Source: Rikenellaceae bacterium
GTDB taxonomy: Bacteria; Bacteroidota; Bacteroidia; Bacteroidales; Rikenellaceae
NCBI GenBank assembly: GCA_044433965.1
Contig: JAWXTF010000001.1
Coordinates: forward strand, 23,912 to 87,911
Direction of reading: 5' to 3'
Length of the DNA: 64,000 nucleotides
Position 1 is the first letter of the stretch. Each line of letters opens with the position of its first letter. A model generated the notes under the pieces. The model was not told the DNA's origin, ran no database searches, and saw only the letters and a program-made list of their open reading frames with translations. Positions 9,873 to 59,815 of this stretch are shown piece after piece. The translations under genes were made by a program, and so were the position numbers.

Positions 9873-10508
9873 TGCTTGATTGTTTCTTTCTGTGCGCTTC
9901 TTACTGCCTCCGGCGGGCGGAGATAACACCTCCGCGGGGTGCATACCTTTTTTCTTTCTGTGCGCTTTGGACTGCCTCCGGCGGGCGGGGATAGCACCCC
10001 CGCGGGTGCATACCTTCTTGCGCAGATGTGGTGGGGGCTTTGCCCCCCAACGAGATATCTACTCTGAGGAGCTTATGAAAATGAATTTTCAACGCTCATC
10101 AGAGTAGATATCTCTGTGTCAACCTACGGTTGCCACCACCACATCTGCGAGGTAAACCTCGATTTGGATTTAAATGCCAAAGGCATTTAAAGAATTATAA
10201 AGACCAATGAGTTGTGCAAATGAATTTACGACAACCTATGGTTGCCACCTCAGTATCTGCGAGGTGAACCTCGATTTGGGTTTAAATGCCAAAGGCATTT
10301 AAAGAATTATAAAGACCAATGAGTTGTGCAAATTTATTTGCGGCAACTCATTGGTCTTTATAATCTTAGAGATGCAATCTCTAAGCCCAAAGCGCAAAGG
10401 TACGCACCCGCGGGGGTGCTATCCCCGCCCGCCGGAGGCAGTCAAAAGCGCACAGAAAGAAACAAGCAAGCAGCGCACAGAAAGAAACAAGCAAGCAGCG
10501 TACAGAAG
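9873..10508. repeat. Modular palindromic repeat family, copy 1 (head-to-head composite)
   Basis: Two forward left-end modules (ctgcctccggcgggcggggatagcacccccgcgggtgc) are followed by a reverse-oriented long unit with an internal 112-bp duplication (10120 vs 10232). It sits between convergent genes. Confidence 0.95.
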
Positions 10509-10524
10509 TCAACCCCAACAAGTG

Positions 10525-11412
10525 TTATTTTTCGAATCGATAGTAAGTACCGAGGGGGAGTTCTTTCTCGGAGCGATCTACGAATACGAGTTCGCCGCAG
10601 CTTTCGTGTTTAGCTTCACCAAATGCTTGGCGTAGTGCGGTGCGTGCGAGTGTTGAGGAGAGTCCCATGGAGTATAGGTTTAGTATGACGAAGCTATTTT
10701 GGGGTTCTAAGAGTGCGGCGCAGCACTCCAGCATCTCGCAGATATTCTCTTCCAGCACCCATTTTTCTCCATTTGCACCACGACCATATGCTGGAGGGTC
10801 GAGGATGATGGCACTATATTTATTACCACGACGCACCTCACGTTGCACAAATTTTAGGGCATCCTCCACAATCCAGCGAATACCCTCCAAGCCGCTACTC
10901 TCCATATTCTCGCGGGACCAGCTCACAACCTGCTTCACGGAGTCTACGTGTGTTGTTTCGGCTCCTGCTGCACATGCTGCCAGCGAGGCGCCACCGGTGT
11001 ATGCGAAGAGGTTGAGCACCTTTGGGCGAGTGCCCTTTGCGGAGGCTATCTCGCGGCACTTATCGTATATAAAGTTCCAGTTTGCGGCTTGTTCAGGGAA
11101 TATCCCAACATGCTTGAATGAGGTGAAGGCAAGACGCATTTTGAGGTGCATCTCTTTGTAGTTGTAGCTTATCGACCAGCGCGAGGGCACCGAGCGTCCC
11201 ATGCGCCAGTCGCCTCTCTCCTCGCTGCGTCCGTCGCGCATAAACGAGGCGTCGGCAGCTGCACGCCACTGCTCCTCGCTTAGGCTCTTGCGCCAAATTG
11301 CCTGAGGCTCAGGACGTCGCGTGGTGATATTGCCAAAACGCTCTAACTTCTCAAACTCACCGGAGTCGAGTAACTCGTAGTCGGGAAATGTTGGTGTTAA
11401 ATTCTTATTCAT
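10525..11412 (-). CDS. Class I SAM-dependent methyltransferase (COG1092 / RlmI-RlmK-like)
   Basis: Motifs YELLDSG, FKHVGIFPEQ, VLNLFAYTGG and ILDPPAYGRG. Confidence 0.88.
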   Translation of the reverse strand: MNKNLTPTFPDYELLDSGEFEKLERFGNITTRRPEPQAIWRKSLSEEQWRAAADASFMRDGRSEERGDWRMGRSVPSRWSISYNYKEMHLKMRLAFTSFKHVGIFPEQAANWNFIYDKCREIASAKGTRPKVLNLFAYTGGASLAACAAGAETTHVDSVKQVVSWSRENMESSGLEGIRWIVEDALKFVQREVRRGNKYSAIILDPPAYGRGANGEKWVLEENICEMLECCAALLEPQNSFVILNLYSMGLSSTLARTALRQAFGEAKHESCGELVFVDRSEKELPLGTYYRFEK

Positions 11413-11466
11413 ATTTCTTTTGATAGAGTATTGTTATTTATTAATATTCGAGGATAACAACTCCCC

Positions 11467-13269
11467 TCACACAAGAATTAGATTCATGCGGCACTCCTTG
11501 CAGTCAAAATCGAGACGGTACCGCACTCCGCCCCGTTCAACAAAGAGCTCTCCTTTGAGCTGCGGTCTCTCTTTGAGGCACTCACCAATCTCGCGACGAA
11601 TGCAGTATGAACTCTGCATCACACGTTGCTCGCAAAAGTCGGCTGTTAGGTCGTGCCCCTCGTCGATGCTCGTGGCGCCATGGTCCAAGTAAAACTGACG
11701 CGCTACGGAGTTGACAACATTAAACTCTGGCGAGAGCCTCTTCTCGGGGCACTTAGCCGCCATATTTTCGGCAAATGGAGCTGTCTGCGAGTAGTTCTCC
11801 AGGCGCACGGTGCGAAGTTTATCGAGGGCTTCACGGCGCAAGTCAGCGAGCAGGGAGGAGGCAACAAACCTCACTTCACCCTCCATCACCACGCGCACTA
11901 CATTGAATATGGTGTCGCCACTCTTTGAGAGTTGCATCTTTGCGACCTCCTCCATCTTGGCTACATTGCGAGGCAGGTCAAAGATGCCTTCGCGACCCAC
12001 CACAATCGAGGCACCCGTTATATCGCGGTATATCAGCTCAATGTAGTTCGGGAGAGTACGTAATGTTGCCTCCACCTCAATCGTGCGACGTGTGCGGCTA
12101 CGCTCCAAGGAGTCGTTAAAAGCCTTGTCGAAGTTGCGGAATAGCTCTACGCCATGGGTCAACCCCTCGGTTCGATTTGGTGATATCCACTCACCCTCCA
12201 CACGGTTTATATTTGTCCCCATAAGTCCTGTTTGAGTTACGAAGCAGACCCCATCACCAGCATGTAACTCACTATTGATCTGCAACTTAAAGCAACCTCC
12301 TTTCTGCTGAGTGATTGTGCCTATACGCTCCCCCACCGACTTGGGAGTGTCGAACGAAGCTAACCCTCTGCTCTGCCCCCAAAAGAGATATTCGGACTCT
12401 CCACGTGTGAAGCTTTTGGAGGGGTTTGGTGCAAAATCCAACTTCGAGTCCCCCACCGAAGCCCGCTCCAAGTCGGCTCTTTGCGCCAGCTCCTTGTCGA
12501 GCGCTGCACGGTAGTAGGCAACAATATTTTTGGTGTATCCGAGATCCTTGAGCCGCCCCTCAATCTTGAATGAAGAGACTCCAACGTCGAGCATAGCGCC
12601 AATTTGAGCTGATAGATTTAGATCTCGCACCGAGAGTAAATGTTTGTTTTCGAGTATCTTAGCACCCTCAGCATCACACAAGTCGTAGCTTAGCCTACAA
12701 GGCTGACTGCACTCGCCACGGTTTCCACTACGCTCCGAGAGCGAGCGAGATAGGTAGCAGCGACCACTATGACCCACACATATTGCGCCATGGACAAATG
12801 CCTCTAACTCCACATCTGTAGCTTTGGCGATAGCCTCAATTTGGCTTAACGAAAGGGCTCGTTCGAGCACAACTCTCGAAAAACCGCACTTCTCCAAGAA
12901 GCGCACCCCTTCGGGAGTCATATTGCACATCTGGGTCGAGGCGTGGAGGTCGACACCAAGGTTCATGCGAGCAAAAGCCATATCTTGGACAATAAGAGCG
13001 TCGACACCAGTAGCGACAATCTCGCGCGCAGTAGCCTCAGCCTCACGTAGTTCGGATTCGAAGAGCAGAGTATTGAGCGTGCAGTGTACCCTCACACCAT
13101 AGGCATGGGCATACTCCACCACAGCGGCGATATCGTCGATAGAGTTCGACGCAGCATGACGCGCACCAAACTTGGCACCACCTATATATACAGCATCCGC
13201 TCCGTAGTCAATGGCAGCAAACGCCGACTCTCGACTCTTAGCGGGTGCCAAAAGCTCAATTTTCTTCAT
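11467..13269 (-). CDS. U32 family Fe-S protein with long C-terminal (DUF3656-like) region, RlhA-like
   Basis: IELLAPA start; HGAICVGHSGRC...NRGECSQPCR; LLSVRDL; KIEGR; 600 aa, ending in a CxxC. Confidence 0.85.
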   Translation of the reverse strand: MKKIELLAPAKSRESAFAAIDYGADAVYIGGAKFGARHAASNSIDDIAAVVEYAHAYGVRVHCTLNTLLFESELREAEATAREIVATGVDALIVQDMAFARMNLGVDLHASTQMCNMTPEGVRFLEKCGFSRVVLERALSLSQIEAIAKATDVELEAFVHGAICVGHSGRCYLSRSLSERSGNRGECSQPCRLSYDLCDAEGAKILENKHLLSVRDLNLSAQIGAMLDVGVSSFKIEGRLKDLGYTKNIVAYYRAALDKELAQRADLERASVGDSKLDFAPNPSKSFTRGESEYLFWGQSRGLASFDTPKSVGERIGTITQQKGGCFKLQINSELHAGDGVCFVTQTGLMGTNINRVEGEWISPNRTEGLTHGVELFRNFDKAFNDSLERSRTRRTIEVEATLRTLPNYIELIYRDITGASIVVGREGIFDLPRNVAKMEEVAKMQLSKSGDTIFNVVRVVMEGEVRFVASSLLADLRREALDKLRTVRLENYSQTAPFAENMAAKCPEKRLSPEFNVVNSVARQFYLDHGATSIDEGHDLTADFCEQRVMQSSYCIRREIGECLKERPQLKGELFVERGGVRYRLDFDCKECRMNLILV

Positions 13270-14711: not shown

Positions 14712-14882
14712 ATGGCTTACAAAATTAATCCTGACGGTTGCGTTGCATGCGGCACATGCATCGACGAATGTCCAGTAGAGGCTATCTCAGCTGGTGATGT
14801 TTACATGATCGACGCTTCAGCTTGTATCGATTGCGGTGCTTGCGCTGGCGTGTGCCCTTCTGAGTGCATCGAGGCTGAATAG
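14712..14882 (+). CDS. 2[4Fe-4S] ferredoxin, 56 aa (absent from the ORF track)
   Basis: Manual translation MAYKINPDGCVACGTCIDECPVEAISAGDVYMIDASACIDCGACAGVCPSECIEAE* has two CxxCxxCxxxCP motifs. An upstream TATATTTG box lies at 14666-14673. Confidence 0.96.
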   Translation: MAYKINPDGCVACGTCIDECPVEAISAGDVYMIDASACIDCGACAGVCPSECIEAE

Positions 14883-14900
14883 TTATCGACACATTCACAC

Positions 14901-14937
14901 AAAAACGACTTCCATTCTGTGGTAGTCGTTTTTTTTG
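14901..14937 (+). terminator. Intrinsic terminator after the ferredoxin
   Basis: Stem aaaaacgact(t)cca / tgg(t)agtcgttttt with a T-tract. Confidence 0.75.
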
Positions 14938-14940
14938 GTG

Positions 14941-15569
14941 CTTGCTTGGTGGTTGGTTGGTTGGTTGGTTGGTTGGTTGGTTGGTTGGTTGGTTGCTGCT
15001 TGCTGTGCGCTTCTCACTGCCTCCGGCGGGCGGGGATAGCACCCCCGCGGGTGCATACCTTTTGCGCTTTGGGCTTAGAGATTGCATCTCTAAGATAATA
15101 AAGACCAAAGAGTTGACGCAAATTCATTTGCACAACTCTTTGGTCTTTATTATTCTTTAAATGCCTACGGCATTTAAACCCAAATCGAGGTTCACCTCGC
15201 TGATGTTGAGGTAGCAACCATAGGTTGACACACAAAATCTGTATTGAAAGTTTATTCTCAAGCCCAAATCAAGGTGAACCTCGCTGATGTGGTGGTGGCA
15301 ACCGAAGGTTGACACAGAGATATCTATTATGAGGAGCGTTGAAAGTTCACTTTCAAAAGCTCATCATAATAGATATCTCGCAGAGGGGCAAAGCCCCCAC
15401 CACATAAGCGCAACAAAAAAAGTCAAAAACGAAGTTTTTGGATCCAAGCTAAGCTTGGTGCCGCGCGGCATGAGCGCAATAAGCAAGCAAACCCCAAAGC
15501 ACCCAAAGCACCCAAAGCACCCAAAGCACCCCAAAGCAAAGCCCCACCCCACGAGCGCAATAAGCAAGC
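14941..15569 (+). repeat. Modular palindromic repeat family, copy 2, with (GGTT)11 and (CCCAAAGCA)5 flanks
   Basis: Near-complete forward unit at about 15001-15490; GGTT x11 at 14951-14994; 9-mer array at 15493-15538. Confidence 0.95.
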
Positions 15570-17679: not shown

Positions 17680-17821
17680 TGCTTTCTCTGCTTTTAGGAC
17701 TGCTTGCTGCGGTTGCCTTCTCTGCTTTTCGGACTCTCTCCCAGGGGTGGAGTTATTATTGCGAATTTAGTTTTTAGAGACCAAATTCGAGGTTCACCTC
17801 GTCTCCTTTGTGGTGGTAACC
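17680..17821 (+). repeat. Degenerate fragment of the modular repeat family (copy 3)
   Basis: ccaaattcgaggttcacctcg...gtggtggtaacc resembles the family module ccaaatcgaggttcacctcgctgatgtggtggtggcaacc. It overlaps the stop of the upstream minus-strand ORF. Confidence 0.55.
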
Positions 17822-18027
17822 CTCTCAATAGTATCACTCTTAAGCGTATCGCACTTAAGCGTGTCACTCTTAAGCGCGTCAAGCTGAACACTATCAACCT
17901 CATCAGCTTTCCACTCAAACAGCTCTGCGGGGAGCATCGAGGTGTAGCCGCCACGATTGAGCACCACAAATGTTGCTACACCTACCACTGCAATTGTGAG
18001 CAGCACCCTAAGTAGTCGCGAGATCAT
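17794..18027 (-). CDS. Small hypothetical membrane-anchored protein, 77 aa
   Basis: N-terminal hydrophobic helix and D(T/A)LK(S/C) repeats; the start overlaps the S41 protease stop. Confidence 0.55.
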   Translation of the reverse strand: MISRLLRVLLTIAVVGVATFVVLNRGGYTSMLPAELFEWKADEVDSVQLDALKSDTLKCDTLKSDTIERVTTTKETR

Positions 18028-22649: not shown

Positions 22650-22682
22650 CAAATCATACTGCTGCAATGAGGACACTGCTTG

Positions 22683-22958
22683 GGTTGCCACCTCAGCATC
22701 AGCGAGGTGAACCTCGATTTGGGTTTAAATGCCGTAGGCATTTAAGAAATTATAAAGAGCAATGAGTTGTGCAAATTTATTTGCGGCAACTCATTGCTCT
22801 TTATAATCTTAGAGATGCAATCTCTAAGCCCAAAGCGCAAGAATGTATGCACCCGCGGGGGTGCTATCCCCGCCCGCCGGAGGCAGTCCGAAGCGCACAG
22901 AAAGAAGCAAGAAGCGCACAGAAGGCAAGCATAGACTCCGCCCGCCGGAGGCAGTCCA
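22683..22958 (-). repeat. Modular palindromic repeat family, copy 4 (left half, reverse orientation)
   Basis: It carries the same hairpin modules as copies 1 and 2 and lies between convergent genes. Confidence 0.95.
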
Positions 22959-28566: not shown

Positions 28567-31500
28567 TTAGTTCTCCAAAGTGGTGAACTCTACACTCATA
28601 TATTCGAGTTGTTCCATCGCCTCATTAAGAGCGATAATAGCAAAGTGGTATTTGGTATTTGCACTAAGTTGACCCAAAGAGGCACCTGCGCTAAAGACCT
28701 TCTCGCCAGCATAGATTCTACCACTTGGCAACAATTGAGAGGCTGTTGCACCAGCGTAAGGCACCAACTCATCTTGAAGTCCTGCCAAGATATCACCATT
28801 ATAGAGTGAGTTTAACCAAGAGTCAGGGATTGTATATGCATAGTAGTAGAGGACATCATCCGCAGGGGCTACTGTGATTGTTGCATCTGATGAGGTAATA
28901 TCGCTCACAGTGAGAGTAAATGGAGCTGCATCTGGCTCAACAACATCTGCTGCTGTAGTAAACACCACCTTCTCTACACACAACATCTCGCCCTCAGCGT
29001 TGAGACCCATAACACCAAATTGATACTCGGTGCCAGAGCTAAGTTGACCAAAGAAATCTTTTACATGGAACTCCTTCTCTCCATATGAAACCATATCGTA
29101 TTGAGCCAATACATCCAATCCCATGCCGTAGCTCAAGAGGTATGAAACACCACTGTTGAGGTAGGCTGCGAAGTCACCAGCATAATCTTTCTCCAAGTAC
29201 TCGGTAGAGATAGCGTGCGCGTAGTAGTAAGGAACATCAGCAGATGGAGTTACAGTAACTGTAGCGTCAGAGGTAGTGATCTCACCCAAAGTAAGAGTGA
29301 CAGTAGGCTCTGGTACAACAACCTCGTCAGCCTCGGTAGTAAATTCAATGCTCTCTATACAGATCATCTCGCCCTCAGCGTTGAGACCCATAGCACCAAA
29401 TTGGTACTTGGTGTCGGGGCTAAGCTGACCAAAGTAGTCTTTCACTCTGAACTCCTTCTCGCTATTTTCGATCATGCCATAATCCAACAATGTATCCATT
29501 CCTGCACCCATACTCAAGAAGTATGAGATTCCCTCATTGAGGAATTTTGTCATGCTTCCTTCGTAGTTTGACTCCAAGAACTCAGAAGAGATAGCATTAA
29601 CGTAGTAGTAAGGAACATCAGCAGATGGAGTTACAGTAACCCCAGCATCAGTTTTGGTGATCTCACCCAAAGTAAGAGTGATGGTAGCATCTGAAGGATC
29701 AACAACAGCATCAGATATCGTTGTAACATTCAAAGACATAGTTCCTTGAAGATCCCCCGAAGCCGATACGCCGACAACTGCAAATTGATACTCTGTTTCG
29801 GGAGTTAACGCGCCGCAAAGATCCGTAAAGTTAAGGCTCTTAGCACCTGAGTGCAAAGTATTCTTCGAGATAAGGGTTGGGATATCGTTGATACTTAGGT
29901 AGTACTTAGCATTCTCCTCGGCGTAAGCAACTACATTACCCTCGTAGTATTGATCCAAAGTAGCTGTTGGGATAGCTGTAGCGTAGTAGTAAGGGATGCC
30001 ATTTGCTGGAGTTATGGTAACTGTAGCATCAGATGAGGTCACCTCGCCCAAAGTGATGGTGAATGGATCAACATCTTGGTTGTTCTCATCTTTTGAGGTG
30101 AAGTTAAGCGACTCAACCTCTGTAGTGAGTGCTCCTGTAGCGTCGACTCCAGCTACGATAAATACATATGCTGTAGCTGCTGTAAGCTCGCTACCCAAGC
30201 ATAGTGTTGGGTCGATGCTCTTGCTGCCGCTGTAAAGAGTGATGTTGTTTGGCTCAGCAAAGTCTGTAGTACCCATCATCAAATCGTTAGCGATCAACAT
30301 ATTGAATAGGGTTGCTGCATCGCCATCAGCAAAGTTTACCATTGTCTCATATGTTTGACAAACAACATAGTAGTTGCCAACTACGCTGTCGGGTGTAACG
30401 TTGATTGTTGCACCTGTCGAGCTAAGGTCAGTAAGTTCGATTGCAAAGGCGTCAGATGGAAGCGGTGCTGCTGTATACTCCTTATAAGAAGAGGCTGTAG
30501 TTATCACCTCGCCACTTTGGTCAACTCCAAGAGTAACAAGAATGTACTCAGTATCGGAGTAGAGTGTACCTGCCAAGCTTGATAGATTTACGCTAAGCTC
30601 TCCCTTGTAGAGTGAACCAGCCTCGACCAAAGCCTCCATATCGGTTGAACCTGCAAGTGCTGTAGATGCAATATTGTTGATGTAGTATGATGCATCCGCG
30701 CCATAGCCTGTAGCCAACGCCTTAGTCGAAATTGCACTCATAAAGTAGTAAGGAACACTCTCAAGAGGTGTCACCTTAACCGAGATCTCGCTCTCGGTAG
30801 AGCTAAGAGTCTCAAATGAGAAGGCATCCTCGATGATCTCTGGCTCAACAACAGTGGTAGGAGTTGTGAGTGAGTATGACTCAACATAAGTAATGTAGTT
30901 GTTGTTGGCATCAACTCCGATTGCAGCAATTACATACTCGGTATTCTCCGAAGCGCTACCTGCGGTATTCATAAGCGATGTTGACCATGCGCTCTTTTGT
31001 GCAATCTCGTAGTCGATAAGCTCGGCAACATTTGCCATACCCAAGTATTGGTCTGCATAGGCTGTAAGCCAGTTGCTTACACTACCCTCATAGCCCGAAT
31101 CCAAAGTCGATTTTAGGATAGCCGAAGCGATGTAGTAGGGAACCTCCTCCGATGGAGTGATAGTAAATTTAACATCTGGAATGCTATTGTCGGTAATCTC
31201 GAATGTAAACGCATTCTCAATCTTCTCTACAGCAACCTCAGTTGTGAAGTCTACAAATGAGACCTCCGAAAGAATGCCTCCATTAGCGTCAACAGCTGCA
31301 ACAGCAAAGATATATTGTGTGTTAGAGTCGAGGTCGTCGCCATAGCAAGCAGTAACATCGATAGTCTTAGTGCCTGTAAAGATGCTGTAACCGTTTGGTT
31401 CAGAGAAGTCTGTCATCGCCATCTTAGCACTCTCAAGTACCAACTCGTAGAACGCTGATGGGTCACCATCGCTATACTCATCCATCAAAGAGTATGGTTG

Positions 31501-32100
31501 ACAAATAACATAGTAGTTCTCAATCTCTTCGACTGGGGTAACTATAGCATTTGCTCCCACCGATGTGATATCTACAATCTCAACCTGGAATGCATCTGCA
31601 AGAATCTCTGGAGCCGGTTCAACATCGGTTGTTACATTAACATGGTTAACACCCGACATCAAGCTACCCTCTGCATCTACCGCAAAAGCCGCTACAACAT
31701 ACTCCGTGTCGTATGCCAACTCCCAAGCTGACGCCAAGTCAACGGTAGAACCACTGCTAAATACATAGGTGTTATCAGCCTTAGCAAAATCAACATCTTT
31801 AGACTCTAAATCCTCAATGATGAATGTAGCCAACTTCAATGAGTCGCTGCTAAGTGATGAAGCATATGCCGATTGCTCAGCAACACCAACAACATAATTG
31901 TCGATATCGACACCGCTATTGATAGAGATCTTAACTTTAAGATCTTCGATTGTTGAACCCTCAATCGCCAATGAAAGTGGGTTTGCTGGGATTACGACAT
32001 TAGGTTCGTCAACATCATTGTCGGTCTTTTCGCAAGAGACAAATGAGAGACTCATCATAAGAGTCGCCAAAAGTAATGAAAAGTAGAGTTTCAATTTCAT
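28567..32100 (-). CDS. 1177-aa lipoprotein built from nine ~125-aa FN3-like repeats
   Basis: Lipobox FVSC followed by EKTDND; the repeated pattern (F/L)T..L..IT...A.V.(V/I)TP....YYY...I....T.Y.F.V.G...G...FTT. Confidence 0.85.
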   Translation of the reverse strand: MKLKLYFSLLLATLMMSLSFVSCEKTDNDVDEPNVVIPANPLSLAIEGSTIEDLKVKISINSGVDIDNYVVGVAEQSAYASSLSSDSLKLATFIIEDLESKDVDFAKADNTYVFSSGSTVDLASAWELAYDTEYVVAAFAVDAEGSLMSGVNHVNVTTDVEPAPEILADAFQVEIVDITSVGANAIVTPVEEIENYYVICQPYSLMDEYSDGDPSAFYELVLESAKMAMTDFSEPNGYSIFTGTKTIDVTACYGDDLDSNTQYIFAVAAVDANGGILSEVSFVDFTTEVAVEKIENAFTFEITDNSIPDVKFTITPSEEVPYYIASAILKSTLDSGYEGSVSNWLTAYADQYLGMANVAELIDYEIAQKSAWSTSLMNTAGSASENTEYVIAAIGVDANNNYITYVESYSLTTPTTVVEPEIIEDAFSFETLSSTESEISVKVTPLESVPYYFMSAISTKALATGYGADASYYINNIASTALAGSTDMEALVEAGSLYKGELSVNLSSLAGTLYSDTEYILVTLGVDQSGEVITTASSYKEYTAAPLPSDAFAIELTDLSSTGATINVTPDSVVGNYYVVCQTYETMVNFADGDAATLFNMLIANDLMMGTTDFAEPNNITLYSGSKSIDPTLCLGSELTAATAYVFIVAGVDATGALTTEVESLNFTSKDENNQDVDPFTITLGEVTSSDATVTITPANGIPYYYATAIPTATLDQYYEGNVVAYAEENAKYYLSINDIPTLISKNTLHSGAKSLNFTDLCGALTPETEYQFAVVGVSASGDLQGTMSLNVTTISDAVVDPSDATITLTLGEITKTDAGVTVTPSADVPYYYVNAISSEFLESNYEGSMTKFLNEGISYFLSMGAGMDTLLDYGMIENSEKEFRVKDYFGQLSPDTKYQFGAMGLNAEGEMICIESIEFTTEADEVVVPEPTVTLTLGEITTSDATVTVTPSADVPYYYAHAISTEYLEKDYAGDFAAYLNSGVSYLLSYGMGLDVLAQYDMVSYGEKEFHVKDFFGQLSSGTEYQFGVMGLNAEGEMLCVEKVVFTTAADVVEPDAAPFTLTVSDITSSDATITVAPADDVLYYYAYTIPDSWLNSLYNGDILAGLQDELVPYAGATASQLLPSGRIYAGEKVFSAGASLGQLSANTKYHFAIIALNEAMEQLEYMSVEFTTLEN

Positions 32101-32816: not shown

Positions 32817-32820
32817 AATC

Positions 32821-33270
32821 TTCGGTTCGGTTCGGTTGCTTTCTGCGCGCTTCGGTTCGGTTGCTTTCTGTGCGCTTCTTACTGCCTCCGGCGGGCGGGG
32901 ATAGCACCCCCGCGGGTGCATACCTTTCTTGCGCTTTGGGCTTAGAGATTGCATCTCTAAGATAATAAAGACCAAAGAGTTGACGCAAATAAATTTGCAC
33001 AACTCCTTGGTCTTTATTATTCTTTAAATGCCTACGGCATTTAAACCTAAATCGAGGTGAACCTCACAGATGTGGTGGTGGCAACCAAAGGTTGACACAG
33101 AGATCTCTATTCTGAGGAGCGTTGAAAGTTCACTTTCAAAAGCCCCTCAGAGTAGATATCTCGCCGGGGGGCAAAGCCCCCACCACATCAGTGCAATACA
33201 AAAATCAAAAACGAAGTTTTTGGATCCAAGCTTAGCTTGGTGCCGCGCGGCATGAGCGCGATAAGCAAGC
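32821..33270 (+). repeat. Modular palindromic repeat family, copy 5 (most complete single unit)
   Basis: It has the full module order from ctgcctccggcggg to ggatccaagcttagcttggtgccgcgcggcatgagcgc and lies between convergent genes. Confidence 0.95.
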
Positions 33271-33296
33271 GGCAACCAAGGCATCAAAGCCCTCCT

Positions 33297-34659: not shown

Positions 34660-34730
34660 TGAGCTATGGTGTAATGGTAACACTACAGATTCTGGTTCTG
34701 TCTTTCTGGGTTCGAGTCCTAGTAGCTCAA
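34660..34730 (+). tRNA. tRNA-Gln(CTG)
   Basis: Acceptor TGAGCTA/TAGCTCA, D-arm GTGT AATGGT AACAC, anticodon arm ACAGA-TTCTGGT-TCTGT, T-arm CTGGG-TTCGAGT-CCTAG. CCA is not encoded. TACTTTTG promoter box at 34632-34639. Confidence 0.96.
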
Positions 34731-34733
34731 CAC

Positions 34734-40168: not shown

Positions 40169-40447
40169 TGCTCATTGCGCTTGCTTTTTTGATGCTTGCT
40201 CTTGCTTGCTCATGCCTGCTCATTGCGCTCGTGCCGCGCGGCACCAAGCAAGCTTGGATCCAAAAACTTCGTTTTTGACTTTATTTTTGTTGCACTGATG
40301 TGGTGGGGCTTTGCCCCTTTACAAGAGATCTATTCTGAAGAGCTTTTGAAAGTGAACTTTCAACGCTCACCAGAATAGATCTCTTGCGTGTCAACCTTCG
40401 GTTGCCACCACCACATCAGCGAGGTTCACATCTCTTACACCCCCAAC
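40169..40447 (-). repeat. Modular palindromic repeat family, copy 6 (right half, reverse orientation)
   Basis: It starts 3 bp after the xylE stop and shares the extra module gtgtaagagatgtgaacctc with copy 9. Confidence 0.95.
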
Positions 40448-40499
40448 CTCCACTACCAACCTCCTCCCAGAAAGTCCCAGAAAGTCCCAGTCAGTCTCA

Positions 40500-40960
40500 G
40501 AAAACCCCTGTTAAAAACCTGTTAACAACCCCCAAAAACCTGTCAACAACCCTTAAAAAAATGTTAATTACTCATACAATATCATGATGATAACTATTAA
40601 TAAGTTTTATAACATTTCTATTGACAAGAGCGAAAAAATTTATAAGCAACAAAAGATCTTAAAAGTCAAGAAAAAGTTATTAAAAGTTATCATCAACAAT
40701 AATGTAGGGTTATCAAAGGTTAATGTTAACAAAAAATAGATGTTAATATGTTAATAAATATTGCAAACAATTGTTAACTTTGCGATGTTAAAACTATTAT
40801 ACTACTAAATTATAGCTATATAACAGTGATTTCTACAATTTAGTTATTAACAACTCGCAAATTTGTTGTTTATAACTAAATTGGTCAAATTGGTTATCAA
40901 CACTATCAACAGCTATTATATTTATTATTATAATTAAATTATTTATAAAGAAAAGAAAAA
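40500..40960. other. Candidate chromosomal replication origin (oriC)
   Basis: About 460 bp, very AT-rich and non-coding. DnaA-box-like 9-mers at 40520, 40541, 40690, 40724, 40749, 40844, 40867, 40894 and 40903; trio-like triplets CTA TTA TAT TTA TTA TTA TAA TTA at 40913-40936. Confidence 0.7.
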
Positions 40961-42927: not shown

Positions 42928-43012
42928 AAATTTGGTTGTAAAAGTGTTTGCTACAAAGATATGAATAAATTAGAAGAGTTACAAATTCAATTCATAATTC
43001 ATAATTTATAAT

Positions 43013-43534
43013 TCATAATTCACAACACTCCTTTGCAACTCTCTCTATTTGGCTACTCTCAACATCATTGGTTAGCACCTTATAGAAAAAGTTTTCAACA
43101 CTCTCATAATTGTTGTTGATCTTTCCCGAAAGACAGCGGTAGAAGTCATTAAGCTGCTCTACACTGAGGCTATCTGCCAAAATACCCTGGTTGATAAGCG
43201 TGCGGTAGGGGTAGAGGTAGCGCAACGAGGTGGCATCGGCGTCGATATCTTCGATGATGCTCGCAACAACCCACATATCTAAACTGTCGTTGTATGAGGG
43301 CATAACAACAAGCTGTGAATAGATAGGGTAACTCCGCTCAACATCTGTTGAAATGTTGTTCGCAAAGAGTACAAATTCAGCATTGTTGAACTCATTGAGA
43401 TAGACCATGTCGCGGTAATTGTCAATTGTTGCTGCAAACTCAACTCTTTCATCATCAGTCCATTTGGTAGGTTGTGAACAACCAATTGTTAATAACATTA
43501 GCACCACAATAGCGCTTAATAGTGATTTTCTCAT
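43013..43534 (-). CDS. Hypothetical lipoprotein
   Basis: MRKSLLSAIVVLMLLTIGC lipoprotein signal. Confidence 0.7.
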   Translation of the reverse strand: MRKSLLSAIVVLMLLTIGCSQPTKWTDDERVEFAATIDNYRDMVYLNEFNNAEFVLFANNISTDVERSYPIYSQLVVMPSYNDSLDMWVVASIIEDIDADATSLRYLYPYRTLINQGILADSLSVEQLNDFYRCLSGKINNNYESVENFFYKVLTNDVESSQIERVAKECCEL

Positions 43535-43593
43535 AAATGTTTATATTTGTTAATTTATCTTCGTGCGGCAAGTTCAATGCCATTTATTTATAC

Positions 43594-44084
43594 TGCTCTC
43601 TGTGCGCTTCTTTCTGTGCGCTTCTTTCTGCTTGCGGTTGCTTTCTGTGCGCTTCGGTTGGGTTCTTGCGGTGCTTTCTGTGCGCTTCTTACTGCCTCCG
43701 GCGGGCTGGGATAGCACCCCCGCGGGTGCGTATCATTGCGCTTTGGGCTTAGAGATTGCATCTCTAAGATTATAAAGATCAAAGAGTTGCCGCAAATAAA
43801 TTTGCACAACTCTTTGGTCTTTATAATTTTTAAATGCCTATGGCATTTAAACCCAAATCGAGGTTCACCTCGCTGATGTCGCGGTAGCTGCCGTAAACTC
43901 ATTTGCACAATTTCCTGATCTTTATAATTTTTAAATGCCTATGGCATTTAAATCAAAATCGAGGTGATCCTCGCTGATGTGCAAGGGGGCAAAGCCCCAC
44001 CACATCAGTGCAACAAAAAGTCAAAAACGACAGTTTTTGGATCCAAGCTTAGCTTGGTGCCGCGCGGCACGAGCGCGATAAGCA
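43594..44084 (+). repeat. Modular palindromic repeat family, copy 7 (the only copy in a divergent intergenic region)
   Basis: Several tandem ttctgtgcgctt linkers, an internal partial duplication, and loss of the large tgaaa hairpin module. Confidence 0.95.
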
Positions 44085-44258
44085 GTTATTTTCAGGTGTT
44101 TCAAAGAGTAGGAAATAATGGTAATTCCGAAATATTTTATATCTTTGCATCAATCAATGTAAAATAAAATTGATGTTAATCACGTTACATTATTGGGGAG
44201 ATTATATCTCGACCGGAGAAGTAACAAAAATAAGTAACAACCTTAAAACACCAAAGGC

Positions 44259-49749: not shown

Positions 49750-49792
49750 GGAGTTGCTGAGAGTTTTTTTTCTGGGACTTTCTGAGACGTAT

Positions 49793-50040
49793 GCGAGGTG
49801 AACCTCGGTGATTTGCTCATGGCAACCGGAGGTTGACATTAAAAAAATAGTATACTTAAGTGTTGAAAATTCATTTTCAAAAGCTTAAGTATACTATTTT
49901 TTTTGTAGTCGCTGCAAGCGACGAGCAAATCAGTGCAATAATACGCACCCGCGGGGGTGCTATCCCCGCCCGCCGGAGGCAATCCGAAGCGCACAGCAAG
50001 CAACCGCAAGCAACTCGAAGCGCACAGCAAGCAACCGCAA
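49793..50040. repeat. Modular palindromic repeat family, copy 8 (diverged composite)
   Basis: A forward large-hairpin module with replaced arms, plus a reverse left-end module, between convergent genes. Confidence 0.9.
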
Positions 50041-52732: not shown

Positions 52733-52876
52733 GCCTAATTATTGTATTTAGTAGTCAATAGTAGCCCAGATGAACTTCGTACACACCCTTAGCAGATGCA
52801 AAGCTACAATAAAAAAATCATATTGCGAAGAGTAAAGATCTATTTTGCAGGGCAAACACACGAAAATATTATCTCT

Positions 52877-53605
52877 TGCTGCCTTCGGCGGGCGCTTGCT
52901 TGCTTTCTGTGCGCTTTTTGCTTCTTTCTGTGCGCTTCTTTCTGCCTCCGGCGGGCGGGGATAGCACCCCCGCGGGTGCGTATCATTGCTTCTTTCTGTG
53001 CGCTTCTTTCTGCCTCCGGCGGGCGGGGATAGCACCCCCGCGGGTGCGTACCATTGCGCTTTGGGCTTAGAGATTGCATCTTTAAGATTATAAAGAGCAA
53101 GGAGTTGCCGCAAATAAATTTGCACAACTCCCTGCTCTTTATAATTTTTAAATGCCTTTGGCATTTAAACCCAAATCGAGGTGAACCTCGCTGATGTGGT
53201 GGTGGCAACCGAAGGTTGACACAGAGAGATCTATTATGAGGAGAAATGAAAGTTGGGCGTGTAAGAGATGTGAACCTCGCTGATGTGGTGGTGGCAACCG
53301 AAGGTTGACACAGAGAGATCTATTATGAGGAGCGTTGAAAATTCATTTTCAAAAGCTCATCATAATAGATCTCTCGCAGAGGGGCAAAGCCCCCACCACA
53401 TAAGTGCAACAAAAAAAAGTCAAAAACGAAGTTTTTGGATCCAAGCTTGCTTGGTGCCGCGCGGCATGAGCGCGATGAGCAAGCTCCCCAAGCGGCAACC
53501 CCAAGCAAAGCCCCACCACATAAGTGCAACAAAAAAAGTCAAAAACGAAGTTTTTGGATCCAAGCTTGCTTGGTGCCGCGCGGCATGAGCGCAATAAGCA
53601 AGCAA
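52877..53605 (+). repeat. Modular palindromic repeat family, copy 9 (longest; several modules duplicated)
   Basis: The left module occurs twice plus a partial, the middle module is restarted, and the terminal ~120 bp is tandemly duplicated (53401 vs 53521). Confidence 0.95.
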
Positions 53606-53659
53606 AACAAAGCAGCAAAACAAGTTGTACACCATGCGATTGCCCCTCAAAAAAAGTAC

Positions 53660-56214: not shown

Positions 56215-56340
56215 AATGCTTTTTATTTGAAAAAGTTAATAATCGATATATGTTACAAAGATAACGATTTAAAAGCATTATTGCAATAATAAAAAATAAA
56301 CGTAGCAAGTAAACGCGCGAAAAAAAATTGCTCATCGCGC

Positions 56341-56806
56341 CTTGGGTTGTTTGGGTTGGGTATGGGTTTGGTTGGTAGTTGGTTGCTTGGTAGTTGGTTG
56401 CTTGGTAGTTGGTTGCTTGGTAGTTGGTTGCTTGTTGGTTGGTTGCTTGTTGCAGCTCTTTGAGCTGCTCGCCCTCTGCGCATTTTTGTTTCAAAAATGC
56501 TTTTTTTGAGGGAGGGCGATGGCTGGGGACTGCGCTCATGCCGCGCGGCACCAAGCTTAGCTTGGATGCAAAAGCCTTTGGCTTTTGACTTTTTTTTGGT
56601 GTTTGCTTTGGTGTTTGCTTGGGTTGGTTGCTTGCTTGTTGCAGCTCTTTGAGCTGCTCGCCCTCTGCGCATTTTTGTTTCAAAAATGCTTTTTTTGAGG
56701 GAGGGCGATAGCTGGGGACTGCGCTCATACCGCGCGGCACCAAGCGAGCTTGGATCCAAAAGCCTTTGGCTTTTGACCCCTTTGGGTTTGTTTGTTACTT
56801 GTTGCA
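56341..56806 (-). repeat. Variant of the modular repeat (copy 10): tandem duplication plus a 15-mer array
   Basis: GGTAGTTGGTTGCTT x4 (56374-56433), then two near-identical units that share gcgctcatgccgcgcggcaccaagc..cttggat with the main family. Confidence 0.9.
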
Positions 56807-58048
56807 GCTTCCCGCGATCATCGTTCCATTGAGGAATACTTTTTCGATCAGGGGAGAGGTGTAAGCGTAGGTGAAGTAATCAAGTGAGGGTATAGGCTTA
56901 GTAATAAAGAAGTTAGCTACTTTCCCCACTCCTATCGAACCATAGTTGTTGCTTTCGCCCATGGCGGCGGCACCATTTATTGTTGTGGCATTTATCGCCT
57001 CGGTGGGTGTCATGCGTAGTGTCATTGTAGCCAGCGAAGCTATCATGCGCATTGAGCCCATTGGCGACGACCCCGGGTTGAAGTCGGAGGCTAAAGCAAC
57101 CTTGGCGCCAGCCTCAATCAAGCGGCGAGCAGGAGGGTAGGGTATACCCAAAAAGATAGCGGCTCCAGGCAGGAGTGTAGCCACCGTCTCGGCTGTCGAG
57201 AGTGCCTCTATCTCGGGCTCTTCGATCCTTTCGAGGTGATCCACCGAGAGTGCGTTGTGTGCCACTCCAAGCTGCACACCGCCCGAATTGGCAAGCTCAT
57301 TGGCGTGAATCTTTGGACGCATGCCATGCTTTGCGGCAGCCTCCACTATGCGCTCAGTCTCGGAGAGTGTGAAGAACCCTTTGTCGCAAAATACATCTAC
57401 AAAGTCCGCTAAGGAGTCGGCAGCTACCGCCGGTATCATCTCGTTGATAATCAAGTCGACATACTCCACTTGGCGGTTAGCGTAGGCGCGTCCCACGGCA
57501 TGAGCCCCCAAGAATGTTGAACGCACGGCAAGTGGCGATGTCTCACCTATGCGGCGCACAACACGGAGCATCTTCAGCTCATCCTCGGTGGTCAATCCAT
57601 ATCCGCTTTTGATCTCTACGAGTCCTGTGCCCTGCGCAATGATCTCGTCTATGCGCCCCATAGCTTGGGTGTAGAGCTCCTCTTCGGTTGTTGCGTGGAG
57701 CAGGTCCGCCGAGTTGAGTATTCCGCCACCTCGCTGGGCTATCTGCTCATAGCTAAGTCCATTGATCTTGTCGACATATTCGCCCTCGCGGCTACCTGCA
57801 TATACAAGGTGTGTGTGCGAGTCGCAAAACGAGGGGAAGAGATATCCCCCTTTGGCATCGACCACTTTGGTTGCCTCAACCTCGCAGGGCTCATCCATCG
57901 AGCCCCATCCAGCGAAGCGATCATCCTCGACAAGCAACCAAGCGTTGTTGAGGGTCTCTATTTGAGACATCTCGGCACCTCGTAGCGACTCCACACCCTC
58001 GGTGTCGAGCCCTACAAGGCAACCAATATTAGATATTAGGAGCGTCAT
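56795..58048 (-). CDS. hutI: Imidazolonepropionase
   Basis: Motifs DSHTHLVYAGSRE, EIKSGYGL, GAH, DVFCD, HANEL, DHLE and ASDFNPGS. The ATG at 58048 overlaps the hutH end. Confidence 0.96.
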   Translation of the reverse strand: MTLLISNIGCLVGLDTEGVESLRGAEMSQIETLNNAWLLVEDDRFAGWGSMDEPCEVEATKVVDAKGGYLFPSFCDSHTHLVYAGSREGEYVDKINGLSYEQIAQRGGGILNSADLLHATTEEELYTQAMGRIDEIIAQGTGLVEIKSGYGLTTEDELKMLRVVRRIGETSPLAVRSTFLGAHAVGRAYANRQVEYVDLIINEMIPAVAADSLADFVDVFCDKGFFTLSETERIVEAAAKHGMRPKIHANELANSGGVQLGVAHNALSVDHLERIEEPEIEALSTAETVATLLPGAAIFLGIPYPPARRLIEAGAKVALASDFNPGSSPMGSMRMIASLATMTLRMTPTEAINATTINGAAAMGESNNYGSIGVGKVANFFITKPIPSLDYFTYAYTSPLIEKVFLNGTMIAGSCNK

Positions 58049-59522
58049 TTTCTGCAATAAATTTTACTGAACTTGCGATGTGTGTGTAGAGCACCTCATC
58101 GCAGTCGACAAATGGTACAATCTTGCGGTACTCGGCAACTACCTCCTCAATTATAGCGGAGCTACGTAACGGACGTCGGAACTCCAACGCCTGAGCAGCA
58201 TTGAGCAGCTCGATAGCCAACACACGCTCCACGTTGAGCACCACTCTGCGTAGCTTGGTAGCAGCATTCGAGCCCATACTCACGTGATCCTCCTGACCTT
58301 GTGACGAGGTGATAGAGTCCACCGAAGCAGGCATGCATAACCCCTTTGTTTGGCTCACAATAGAGGCAGCAGTATATTGAGGAATCATAAATCCACTATT
58401 GAGACCCGGCTTAGCGACCAAGAAGCTTGGCAAGCCCCGCACACCAGCAACCAATTGATATACACGGCGCTCAGCAATATTGGCAAGCTCCGCCATAGCT
58501 ATCGCCAAGAAGTCCATCGCAAGGGCTATAGGCTGTCCGTGGAAGTTACCTGCCGAGATAATCTCGTCGGTATCCGGAAATATCGTTGGGTTGTCGGTGG
58601 TAGAGTTGATCTCAGTTGTGATAACACTCTCGACATAGGCTATACTATCTTTCGAGGCGCCATGAACCTGTGGAATACAGCGGAAGGAGTAGGGGTCTTG
58701 CACAGCCTTGCCCTCAGCCGAAAGCATCTCGCTACCCTCCAACAGTGCTCTAAAGCGACGAGCAGTCTCGATCTGCCCTGCATGCGCACGCACCTGCTGA
58801 ACATTGTCGCTAAAGGGCTCAATACGTCCGTTAAAGGCGTCGAGCGCAAGAGCTCCCAACGTGTCAGACCAGTCACTAAGGCGCTTCGCCTTGATGAGAG
58901 ACCACACACCATAGGCACTCATAAACTGAGTACCATTGAGAAGCGCCAAGCCCTCCTTGGAGTGGAGCGTAACCGCCTTCCACCCAAAGTGATCATTAAC
59001 TACCGCCGATGCCATGACCTTACCTTGATACTCCACCTCACCAAGACCCAAAAGTGGCAACGAGAGGTGTGCCAAGGGCGCTAAGTCTCCCGAAGCACCC
59101 AGAGAGCCCTGCTCATAGACCACAGGCAGAATATCGTTGTTGTAGAGCTCGATCATACGTTCGAGTGTCGTGAGCTGCACTCCCGAGTGACCATAGGCAA
59201 GTGACTGAATCTTAAGGAGTAACATTAGCTTTACAATAGGTGAGGCTACTCTGTCTCCCGTGCCACAGGCGTGCGACATCACCAAGTTGGATTGAAGCTG
59301 CGAAAGCTCACCTGGACTTATCGAGATGTTGCAAAGAGAGCCAAAACCTGTAGTGACACCATAGATGGGACTCTCCTGCGTAGCCATCTTCTCATCGAGA
59401 TATTGACGACACTTGGTGACACGAGTGCGTGCATCGTCACTAAGGGTGATTTTGTAGTTCTGCTCTAAGATTGTGCGTAGCATATCTATTGTAAGATGCT
59501 CAGCGCTAATTTGGTGAATCAT
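58029..59522 (-). CDS. hutH: Histidine ammonia-lyase
   Basis: YGVTTGFG, the MIO-forming GASGDLAPL, KEGLALLNGTQ, QDPYSFRC and NFHG. Confidence 0.97.
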   Translation of the reverse strand: MIHQISAEHLTIDMLRTILEQNYKITLSDDARTRVTKCRQYLDEKMATQESPIYGVTTGFGSLCNISISPGELSQLQSNLVMSHACGTGDRVASPIVKLMLLLKIQSLAYGHSGVQLTTLERMIELYNNDILPVVYEQGSLGASGDLAPLAHLSLPLLGLGEVEYQGKVMASAVVNDHFGWKAVTLHSKEGLALLNGTQFMSAYGVWSLIKAKRLSDWSDTLGALALDAFNGRIEPFSDNVQQVRAHAGQIETARRFRALLEGSEMLSAEGKAVQDPYSFRCIPQVHGASKDSIAYVESVITTEINSTTDNPTIFPDTDEIISAGNFHGQPIALAMDFLAIAMAELANIAERRVYQLVAGVRGLPSFLVAKPGLNSGFMIPQYTAASIVSQTKGLCMPASVDSITSSQGQEDHVSMGSNAATKLRRVVLNVERVLAIELLNAAQALEFRRPLRSSAIIEEVVAEYRKIVPFVDCDEVLYTHIASSVKFIAENDAPNI

Positions 59523-59573
59523 AGTGTTTTGGGTTGTGTATTTTTTTTGATATTTCTTTCTTTCTTTTTGTTT

Positions 59574-59815
59574 CTTGCTGTGCGCTTCGGTTCCTTTCTG
59601 TGCGTTTCGGACTGTCTCCGACGGGTGGGGATGGCACCCCCACGGGTGCGTACCTTTTTGCGCTTATTATTGTGGGCGCTTGTAGCGCTTACGATCTTTA
59701 ATAGTAAAGGTAGTCTTATGAAAGCTCGCTTTCAACGACAACATTTACTATTAAAGATCTATGTCAACCTACGGTTGCCACCACAAAATAAGCGAGGTGA
59801 ACCTTGGGTGAACCT
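59574..59815. repeat. Modular palindromic repeat family, copy 11 (diverged composite)
   Basis: A diverged left module (ctgtctccgacgggtggggatggcacccccacgggtgc) followed by a reverse large-hairpin module with new arms. Confidence 0.85.

Follow-up and report, generated by a model that had tools for sequence, protein, structure and literature searches.

The stretch analysed here (64,000 nucleotides from a Rikenellaceae bacterium, hereafter the window) is an ordinary piece of Bacteroidales chromosome with a GC content of ~48%, in which copies of a single family of multi-hairpin repeats, 60–750 bp in size and ~4.4 kb in total, make up 51% of the 8.6 kb of intergenic DNA. The family is genuine, extensive and had not been catalogued before. 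It belongs to a known kind, that of extragenic palindromic or miniature inverted-repeat elements, and its unusual traits are its size, a unit built of a head and a junction, covariation across species and an association with stop codons. The window carries genes for histidine utilisation (listed below with the repeats), serS, proS, nadA, xylE, genes for xylose and nucleoside transport, trxB, lspA, sppA and genes encoding Omp28/PG1828-type lipoproteins. A scan of 47 sizeable open reading frames (ORFs) of the window revealed no transposase, integrase, HUH, IS110 or reverse transcriptase gene, in agreement with the original prediction, which had noted that no mobiliser was present; those ORFs with a family match are housekeeping genes, and a few of the 47 remained without a match.

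Repeat blocks were defined by BLAST of the unit at 32820–33290 against the window together with a self-BLAST of the window, which returned 9867–10498, 14929–15507, 22679–22955, 32833–33288, 40213–40447, 43606–44085, 49789–50040, 52879–53620, 56380–56777 and 59558–59806, with 80–96% identity between copies. The family had been predicted at 11 intergenic sites with a cover of ~4.5 kb; the measured cover is ~4.4 kb and ten of the sites do carry the family, while the site at 17.7 kb holds only a degraded relic of ~50 nt. The gene context is likewise as described: convergent genes flank five sites (9.9, 14.9, 22.7, 32.8 and 49.8 kb), divergent genes flank the site at 43.6 kb, the remaining ones lie between co-directional genes, and no copy in the window interrupts an ORF.

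Architecture of the repeat units

The anatomy was drawn from 95 heads and ~57 full L units. A motif search of the window confirmed that the hairpin modules listed in the original prediction recur, mostly without mismatch (8 occurrences of GCGGGGATAGCACCCCCGC with 0 mismatches; 5 exact occurrences of CTTAGAGATTGCATCTCTAAG and one with 1 mismatch), but their proposed arrangement as a chain of about 10 modules in fixed order has to be replaced by a head-plus-core unit whose two core types are joined tail to tail. The basic unit of ~190 nt starts with a GC-rich head and continues into a junction core, whose closing stem surrounds three hairpins. Head A (~65 nt) consists, in this order, of the outer end (T)TTCTTACTGCC, the hairpins CTGCC-TCC-GGCGG and GCGGGG-ATAGCAC-CCCCGC, and GGGTGC...TTGCG. 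Its outer 25 nt, (T)TTCTTACTGCCTCCGGCGGGCGGGG, serve as a terminal inverted repeat and are found at both ends of 13 composites, namely 12 of the form head(+)...head(−) in loci of metagenome-assembled genomes (MAGs) and one in the window. In the L core, the closing stem TTGGG/CCCAA plus CG/CG surrounds three hairpins: the first is short and variable, the second is a variable stem of 22 bp whose apex GCAAATAAATTTGCACAAC is invariant, and the third is the invariant TTTAAATGCC-nnn-GGCATTTAAA. The R core is closed by GATGTGGTGG/CCACCACATC in the window and by GATTTGCTC/GAGCAAATC elsewhere, and contains GCAACC-nnn-GGTTG with a mostly 3-nt GNA-type loop, a long stem of variable sequence that bears the apex GTTGAAAGTTCACTTTCAAAAG, and a short GC hairpin that also varies. 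Read on the opposite strand, it shows the part order and topology of the L core, and the L model scores a head followed by a reversed R core at 90–118 bits.

Both cores are joined tail to tail at the palindrome P5 (CGAGGT-nn-ACCTCG), which forms the symmetry centre and in several related MAGs loops out a linker rich in heptamer repeats. The right end following R is either an inverted head or a T module, the latter ending in relatives with ..GCAGTAAGAA, the inverse of the head's outer end TTCTTACTGC. The resulting composites of 250–750 bp are thus two diverged unit types placed tail to tail with inverted termini, and the arrangements seen include tail-to-tail L/R dimers, head...head' composites, tandem heads and tandem T modules. 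Minimal members are single hairpins of 57–62 bp in which the two termini pair around the ATAGCAC loop (for example L043:2508-2578, L031:2832-2911 and L043:1575-1637). Several modules are palindromes with a spacer of 0–2 bases, and many hairpins carry three-base loops. The L model found nine copies in the window, 6 on the plus and 3 on the minus strand within a span of 50 kb. The copies and the other features of the window are as follows.

9867–10498, composite between convergent FtcD(+) and methyltransferase(−) genes, bounded by inverted heads: tract, head A(+) 9888–9950, head A(+) 9956–10016, R core(−) 10025–10147, partial L core(−) 10169–10221, L core(−) 10274–10395, head A(−) 10396–10457, 25-mer x2.4 at 10447–10507
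14929–15538 (+), composite after serS: (TTGG)13.8 microsatellite 14942–14995, head A 15003–15062, L core 15064–15185, partial R core ~15200–15285, R core 15286–15405, T module 15418–15488, CCCAAAGCA x5 at 15493–15538
17776–17822 (+), degraded relic of an L/R junction, ..CCAAATTCGAGGTTCACCTCG..TGTGGTGGTAACC, the sole family trace at 17.7 kb
22679–22955 (−), half element between a convergent radical-SAM gene(+) and an Omp28-like gene(−), the top covariance-model match (214 bits): truncated R start, P5, L core 22717–22838, head A 22845–22902, 21-mer x2 tract, partial head
32826–32878 (+), outer G/T-rich tract of the reference unit, 25-mer x2.1, filling the gap from the stop codon (32816) to the head
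32866–32930 (+), head A of the reference unit: TTCTTACTGCC, CTGCC-TCC-GGCGG, GCGGGG-ATAGCAC-CCCCGC, GGGTGC..CTT
32931–33052 (+), L core of the reference unit: closing stem TTGGG/CCTAA (CCCAA in other copies) and hairpins CTTAGAGAT-TGC-ATCTCTAAG, long stem with apex GCAAATAAATTTGCACAAC, and TTTAAATGCC-nnn-GGCATTTAAA
33053–33066, P5 of the reference unit, CGAGGT-nn-ACCTC(G)
33067–33195 (+), R core of the reference unit: closing stem GATGTGGTGGTGG/CCACCACATC and hairpins GCAACC-nnn-GGTTG, long stem with apex GTTGAAAGTTCACTTTCAAAAG, and GGGGC-AAA-GCCCC
33196–33275 (+), T module of the reference unit, the alternative right terminus: AAAAAC-GAAG-GTTTTTGG, CCAAGC-TTA-GCTTGG, TGCCGCGCGGCA, TGAGCGCG
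40193–40447 (−), half element of R core and T module 3' of xylE: 10-mer x3.3 at 40193–40226, T module 40225–40278, R core 40291–40417, P5
43599–44085 (+), composite between divergent genes: tract 43599–43695, head A 43676–43729, L core 43738–43858, partial L core 43901–43952, 3' part of R core 43985–44012, T module 44016–44084
49789–50040 (−), head plus R-type unit between convergent RNase HII(+) and TatD(−) genes (103.9 bits): P5, variant R core (GATTTGCTC/GAGCAAATC) ~49806–49940, head A(−) 49945–49996, and a 10-mer x4.4 tract 49996–50040 that abuts the TatD stop codon
52879–53623 (+), largest array: leader/tract 52879–52937, head A 52926–52979, head A 52994–53052, L core 53056–53176, partial R core 53193–53243, R core 53282–53408, T module 53415–53484, T module 53534–53603, tract 53596–53623
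56335–56790 (−), two tandem T modules, each joined to a further hairpin module (GCAGCTC-TTT-GAGCTGC; CGCCCTC..GAGGGAGGGCG around GCATTTTTG-TTT-CAAAAATGC), with tracts 15-mer x5.5 at 56368–56449 and 12-mer x3.2 at 56595–56633
59558–59806 (+), head plus R-type unit (90.3 bits): 20-mer x2 at 59570–59610, diverged head A 59596–59662 with the compensated hairpin GTGGGG-ATGGCAC-CCCCAC, reversed variant R core 59663–59790, P5 59792–59806
8141–9841, ftcD, histidine utilisation
56795–58057, hutI-like gene, histidine utilisation
58029–59522, hutH, histidine utilisation
59854–61863, hutU, histidine utilisation
34660–34731, tRNA-Gln, the sole window match above an Rfam gathering threshold

Nearly every element end is adjoined on its outside by a short-tandem-repeat tract, G/T-rich when read inward, and such tracts occur symmetrically at both ends; in the MAG loci they are often degenerate copies of the terminal 11–13 nt. 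The listed edge arrays at 14942, 15493, 49996, 56368 and 56595 are always G/T-rich towards the element. A subset of heads has an additional conserved leader, GGCAAACGCATGAAAATAYAC, just outside the TTCTTACTGCC terminus (L025:7825, L011:5540, L013:6758, L015:4185, L046:2727, L013:5246 and window ~52880–52925), which may mark the true outer end of one subfamily. Heptamer repeats of TAATTCA/AATTCAT in 3.6–4.9 copies occupy two short gaps of the window (8102–8126 and 42989–43022), and the P5 linkers in L037 (~5830–5890), L049, L059 and L007 contain the similar heptamers AATTGTG, AATTATG and AATTCAT. Other short intergenic arrays near or away from the family, at 40465–40567 and 2752–2780, are built from TCCCAGAAAG x3.9, a 21-mer x2.6 and CCCAGAAAGCC x2.6.

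ORFs of 100–140 codons lie wholly within repeats at 14782–15108(−), 43588–43908(−), 52748–53164(−), 53283–53588(+) and 59496–59879(+). They are almost certainly spurious, though gene callers would report them, and a called ORF of 20 residues at the edge of L070 is of the same kind. Two further repeats of the window are unrelated to the family: internal DNA repeats at 28838–30062, within the ORF 28567–32100(−) for a 1177-aa fn3-containing, surface-protein-like product, and an imperfect palindrome of ~170 bp at 61887–62052 (tctaagaatctgtttaa...ttaaacagattctaaattaga, inner arms tttgcttttctctttttgca / tgcaaagagagaaaatcaaagca) between hutU and a Fer4/pyridine-nucleotide oxidoreductase gene, a position at which the orthologous site of L038 has a head and an L unit.

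Structural constraint, placement and distribution

Folded as single-stranded DNA, a 410-nt unit reached −107.9 kcal/mol compared with −53.2 ± 4.4 kcal/mol for dinucleotide-preserving shuffles (z = −12.5; 0 of 100 as stable), and the complementary strand reached −106.1 kcal/mol (z = −12.6). Covariation of the L unit was measured on an independent MAFFT alignment of 26 units, in which paired cells amounted to 97.0% (83.4% in shuffles) and 35 of 61 pairs had changed on both sides, compared with 19.6 ± 1.8 in 500 shuffles, none of which reached the observed value. Shifting the partner columns by 1–3 positions cut the pairing to 29–51%. Compensatory changes were also found in 25 of 60 pairs of R/T, and the long-range closing stem covaries as well, one of its pairs occurring as AU 14, UA 6, GC 2 and CG 2 times. 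The interior of the element is its most strongly structure-constrained part.

Across 70 matches of the L model (full L and head/reversed-R units), 3,872 of ~4,100 cells were Watson-Crick pairs. Only 158 were G.U, and 118 of these occurred at two fixed positions, leaving 40 variable G.U cells compared with 71 A.C cells; the head hairpin keeps a fixed T.G wobble, with TG in 64 of the 70 copies. RNA folding treated both strands alike (−80.0 kcal/mol for plus and −81.1 kcal/mol for minus; Wilcoxon p = 0.32, n = 55), the plus strand folding better in 24 of 55 copies, and the G.U share of the pairs in minimum-free-energy structures was 5.5% on the plus and 4.9% on the minus strand. In co-directional intergenic regions, L units were oriented sense in 9 and antisense in 13 cases. 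Because pairing is nearly all Watson-Crick and both strands fold equally, these data suggest that the structural constraint applies to DNA, or equally to the two strands, and not to a single transcript. Together with the lack of an orientation bias, they speak against the structured RNA that the original prediction had offered as an option.

Placement was counted on the 85 heads with an identifiable outward neighbour. The predicted 3' bias proved real: 63 of these heads (74%) face the 3' end of a gene, 47 of them at 15–53 nt from the stop codon, while the remaining 22 face gene starts at larger distances. By intergenic context, full L copies were distributed over convergent (20), co-directional (22) and divergent (2) regions. 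Gene 3' ends facing a head used TAG as stop codon in 34 of 55 cases, compared with 98 of 278 other genes (p = 4e-4), and GTAG was present at 20 of 55 head-facing stops compared with 34 of 278 (p = 7e-5); the excess of TAG and GTAG was also observed within the MAG FM_14 alone and in the other MAGs pooled.

An exact scan for the 19-mer GCGGGGATAGCACCCCCGC in one genome per species (185,579 species) matched at least 57 loci, and all 57 listed are in assemblies labelled 'MAG: Rikenellaceae bacterium', which bears out the proposed lineage-specificity as well as the presence of the family beyond the window. It was found in a clade of uncultured, gut-type Rikenellaceae, in at least 11 species-level MAGs from two accession series with contigs of up to 195 kb, and FM_14_G117_V alone contributed at least 24 loci with at least 42 heads among the matches listed. 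In the following, L003–L059 denote MAG loci, and L001, L002, L070 and L071 Logan contigs of SRR26557938 and SRR26557942. Orthologous genes in the MAG loci are only 77–80% identical to the window DNA, and therefore none of the listed MAGs represents the window's own species. Exact-protein look-ups found the window's own strain only as Logan contigs of 1.4–1.8 kb ending at element edges; L001 and L002 are 100% identical to the window and stop inside elements, for example at window position 33258 in the T module. The family thus fragments short-read assemblies.

No match to the L-unit covariance model was obtained in 78 kb of more distant SppA-bearing metagenome loci, and a metagenome scan with SppA for strain-level empty sites returned only relatives at ≤45% identity. 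Likewise, neither PLSDB plasmids and INPHARED phages (BLAST of the unit) nor IMG/VR (exact scan) gave a match. No Rfam 15 family was matched by the repeat: at E ≤ 10 the best hits of the unit were miRNA/snoRNA-like matches to the long hairpin, far below thresholds. A literature search on the carrier MAG accessions and on Rikenellaceae repeats returned nothing.

For 47 of 55 copies the nearest neighbour is a copy in the same genome, and six window copies are 88–94% alike but at most 79% identical to any copy from a foreign genome. FM_14 contains several subfamilies at unrelated loci, and their long stems differ throughout yet pair perfectly. Filled and empty versions of orthologous sites exist between species. 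In L024, a composite of ~600 bp lies ~18 nt after a terminator-like hairpin, whereas L008 and L005 are empty and alignable at this position; in L036, a unit separates two genes that in the window overlap by stop and start codon (TAATG), the stop codon being TAG at the filled site and TAA at its empty counterpart. The loci L005, L008 and L024 moreover share a gene neighbourhood with different module combinations. No consistent target-site duplication was recognised, the ends being blurred by variable tandem tracts. Between species diverged by ~20%, the filled/empty comparison at L036 allows a duplication of 0–1 bp, and the L024 insertion is flanked by a doubtful A/T-rich 9-mer duplication (TTTTTTAAA / TTTTTATAAA).

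Origin and spread of the family

The inverted termini, the lack of an ORF, the genome-specific subfamilies, the variable occupancy and the avoidance of promoter regions argue for a non-autonomous mobile element, as the original prediction had proposed. Strand symmetry and hairpin dependence, in turn, point to a folded DNA intermediate. We therefore favour, at about even confidence, the interpretation of the family as non-autonomous, DNA-level palindromic repeats of the kind represented by repetitive extragenic palindromic (REP) sequences, BIMEs, REPINs and miniature inverted-repeat transposable elements (MITEs), although far larger and more elaborate than usual. In this model, an enzyme acting in trans and encoded by a single-copy gene at another place in the genome would copy the repeats by way of a folded single strand of DNA. 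The most probable candidate is an HUH tyrosine transposase of the REP-associated tyrosine transposase (RAYT) / IS200-like type, a step that is inferred. As such a gene would sit elsewhere, the lack of a transposase beside any copy is as expected. Insertion would occur preferentially 3' of GTAR, making stop codons safe landing sites, and would explain the proximity to stop codons, the excess of TAG and GTAG, and the fixed orientation of the head towards the upstream gene. Only lineages that keep the fold would go on spreading, which would explain the covariation. The G/T-rich flanking arrays would be by-products that arise either where stalled forks slip or where ends are processed repeatedly, and inserted elements would become part of many 3' untranslated regions (3' UTRs) as a consequence rather than as a selected function.

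Several observations weigh against this interpretation. GTAG is the tag of REP/RAYT systems, but in this family it coincides with the stop codon of an adjacent gene, 5–45 nt away from the hairpin on its outer side, and does not form the hairpin foot; only 36% of the gene-facing heads have it, and L024, the clearest filled site, has no GTAG at its edge. Elements of the IS200/IS605 type are normally devoid of terminal inverted repeats and show an orientation bias relative to the replicating strand, whereas the present family has inverted termini and mixed orientations within 64 kb. Neither the window nor the MAG loci revealed a mobiliser of any kind, and a six-frame regular-expression search for the Y1 HuH...Y motif over 567 kb gave one irrelevant hit. 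Even without selection, template switching (hairpin-templated mutation) could generate some of the compensatory changes. Identity between any two copies does not exceed 95%, so that recent transposition is not demonstrated, and the clustering of copies by genome could also result from concerted evolution or recombination between copies. Furthermore, the invariant loops and four-way-junction cores exceed the needs of a known REP or MITE, and none of the hairpins tabulated for TnpA_Y1 subclass 2.6 (PMC6006769) matches the family sequence.

One alternative, which we consider unlikely, is that the repeats are ordinary MITEs, that is, internally deleted derivatives of an insertion sequence (IS) with a DDE transposase that share its ~25-bp inverted ends and are moved as double-stranded DNA by cut-and-paste or copy-and-paste. 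The clearly inverted termini, the small size (60–750 bp), the lack of an ORF and the intergenic location would all fit, and the tandem terminal 11–13-mers outside the ends (L003, L022, L038 and L043:1575) could represent footprints of repeated insertion and excision with a long target duplication; a short A/T-rich duplication is possible at L024. However, target-site duplications are not consistent and the comparison of L036 with the window allows at most 1 bp. All-against-all clustering of 361 ORFs (window and 59 loci) yielded no multi-copy gene, and no IS with the family's ends was present among them in the 480 kb flanking the 95 heads, the ORFs between head pairs all being housekeeping genes, e.g. 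for EF-P, DnaG, L25, Pth, MatE and pyruvate kinase. Moreover, the interior of a MITE normally decays, while here it is the part under the strongest structural constraint.

Selection by the host for cis-acting RNA modules of 3' UTRs, acting as 3'-end protectors or bidirectional terminators and spread by recombination, appears quite unlikely to us. This explanation draws on the sense orientation of the 74% of heads that face a gene 3' end and on their distance of 15–53 nt from the stop; on the full L copies with both neighbours known, of which 20 of 44 are convergent and only 2 divergent; on the L036 unit, which is located within an operon and separates a stop codon from the start codon that follows; and on persistence across at least 11 species. 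Pairing restricted to Watson-Crick pairs could be explained by transcripts entering from both sides between convergent genes, and the fixed T.G wobble of the head would pair on the sense strand only. Nevertheless, no U-tract follows any hairpin in either direction, the flanks being the opposite (U-rich 5' and A-rich 3'), the fold is without strand asymmetry, and 22 of the 85 heads face promoters or gene starts. Occupancy and module combination vary at orthologous sites, genome-specific subfamilies occur at unrelated loci, and a simple exonuclease block would not need invariant loops.

It is also conceivable, if quite unlikely, that the repeats represent an undescribed class of mobile DNA, in which a large folded strand with a two-hairpin head and a cloverleaf-like four-way junction with invariant loops is recognised by an HUH or other structure-reading enzyme and inserted right after (G)TAG/(G)TAA stops. 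If this were true, a large part of the host's genes would have acquired a standard module at their 3' ends, and the hypervariable but always compensated long stem could be a determinant of subfamily or specificity.

Structured non-coding RNA genes or an RNA-based (retro)mobile element, such as a trans-acting RNA, a ribozyme or a SINE-like element with end repeats from reverse-transcriptase slippage, are very improbable. Multi-helix junctions, strong covariation and invariant loops are features of functional RNAs, simple-sequence arrays are located at the element ends, and the larger number of A.C (71) than variable G.U cells (40) on the reference strand would correspond to an excess of G.U on the complement. 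Still, G.U pairs are nearly absent on either strand, the folding energies are equal and no Rfam family matches; in addition, the termini are inverted repeats, the simple repeats are symmetric at both ends instead of marking one 3' end, and neither the window nor the MAG loci contain a reverse transcriptase. Finally, same-strain short-read contigs stop at element edges, so the repeats do disturb assembly, but an assembly or chimera artefact has a negligible probability given independent assemblies of at least 11 MAGs from two accession series with contigs of up to 195 kb, and copies in different gene contexts whose sequence differences are compensated.

Further candidates were tried and rejected. 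A group II intron had been considered because of GTGCG beside window heads and the insertion in L024 after a terminator-like hairpin, but GTGCG is absent in the MAG copies and no intron model matched. An intrinsic terminator was discarded since no T-run follows any hairpin on either strand, and a retroelement 3' tail as source of the simple repeats was abandoned in view of their symmetric occurrence at either end and of the lack of a reverse transcriptase in the window and the MAG loci.

Comparison with known systems

For annotators, the repeats carry a warning: they break short-read assemblies, create spurious ORFs of 80–140 codons, and show a covariation that could lead to their being taken for non-coding RNAs. 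Among described systems, REP/BIME/REPIN with RAYT and the terminal inverted repeat (TIR) families around RAYT-like 'TIRYT' genes come closest. The original prediction had pointed to REP/BIME and BOX elements, an apt comparison in kind that missed the inverted termini and the unit of head and core.

More distant likenesses exist to IS200/IS605-derived palindrome-associated elements (PATEs) and the omega-RNA scaffolds of TnpB, which are also hairpin-dependent, lack a consistent target duplication and possibly share a fixed short target (here GTAR) 5' of the left end. In IS608, 19 nt separate the target from the first hairpin, a distance similar to the GTAR spacing of the family. These elements, however, have asymmetric left and right ends, a replication-linked strand bias and a strand-specific RNA, while the present family has inverted-repeat ends, mixed orientation and a strand-symmetric fold, and its unit matched neither IS605-orfB nor HEARO in Rfam.

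Bacterial MITEs with a conserved fold include Correia/CREE and NIMEs of Neisseria, ERIC, pneumococcal BOX and RUP, bcr1 of Bacillus cereus and 'BrickBuilt' of Porphyromonas gingivalis. As in these families, the repeats are small, ORF-less and intergenic, often lie 3' of genes, have inverted termini and would be co-transcribed with their neighbours; they are modular like BOX A-B-C and the NIME blocks, and share with BrickBuilt inverted ends and an internal minisatellite in a Bacteroidales host. They differ in showing no sequence similarity in the collections searched and no consistent target-site duplication, in an interior held by cross-species covariation, and in ~10 hairpins and up to 750 bp, which exceed those families. 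PMC3184786 lists part of these properties.

For the genes of TnpA_Y1 subclass 2.6 (RAYT group 5), a subclass typical of Bacteroidetes, flanking 'atypical secondary structures' with further genomic copies have been reported (PMC6006769), and long 'double palindromic' TIR families can border RAYT-like genes (PMC6006769, PMC3733652). The TIR families of 'TIRYT' genes (TIRtrons) are moderately abundant and dispersed as singles, dimers or clusters, with the motif GGGGWSAS (Di Nocera et al. 2013, PMC3733652). The present family resembles them in its long terminal inverted repeats, the head having two adjacent hairpins; the head string GGGGATAG is one base off GGGGWSAS, with no exact match. It differs in that no TIRYT gene was found in the window or the MAG loci and in its structured internal cores, which have no published counterpart.

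The likeness to REP/BIME/REPIN extends over dense extragenic palindromic repeats that occur as singles, inverted dimers and mosaic clusters of two unit types, the lack of an adjacent transposase, a mostly vertical persistence with genome-specific sequence populations, hairpins kept by compensatory change, and a GTAG signal associated with the ends. These systems have been worked out almost entirely in Proteobacteria. The window and the 567 kb that include the MAG loci yielded no RAYT gene. Unlike in RAYT-driven REP systems, GT[AG]G/CGTC is not found at the 5' foot of the hairpin, the terminus reading TTCTTACTGCC with GTAG in only about one third of cases. In contrast to the 20–40-nt REP hairpin, the unit spans ~190 nt with a four-way junction, even the smallest members measuring 57–62 bp, and the termini form a true inverted repeat of 25 nt. 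With half of the intergenic DNA in 64 kb, a fold shared by at least 11 species, units about five times the size of a REP and a measurable link to stop codons, the family would be a rich Bacteroidales example of the REP type, useful as a test case for the inheritance and selection of folded DNA rather than sequence in selfish elements and as a candidate substrate with which the RAYT subclass of Bacteroidetes might be found and characterised.

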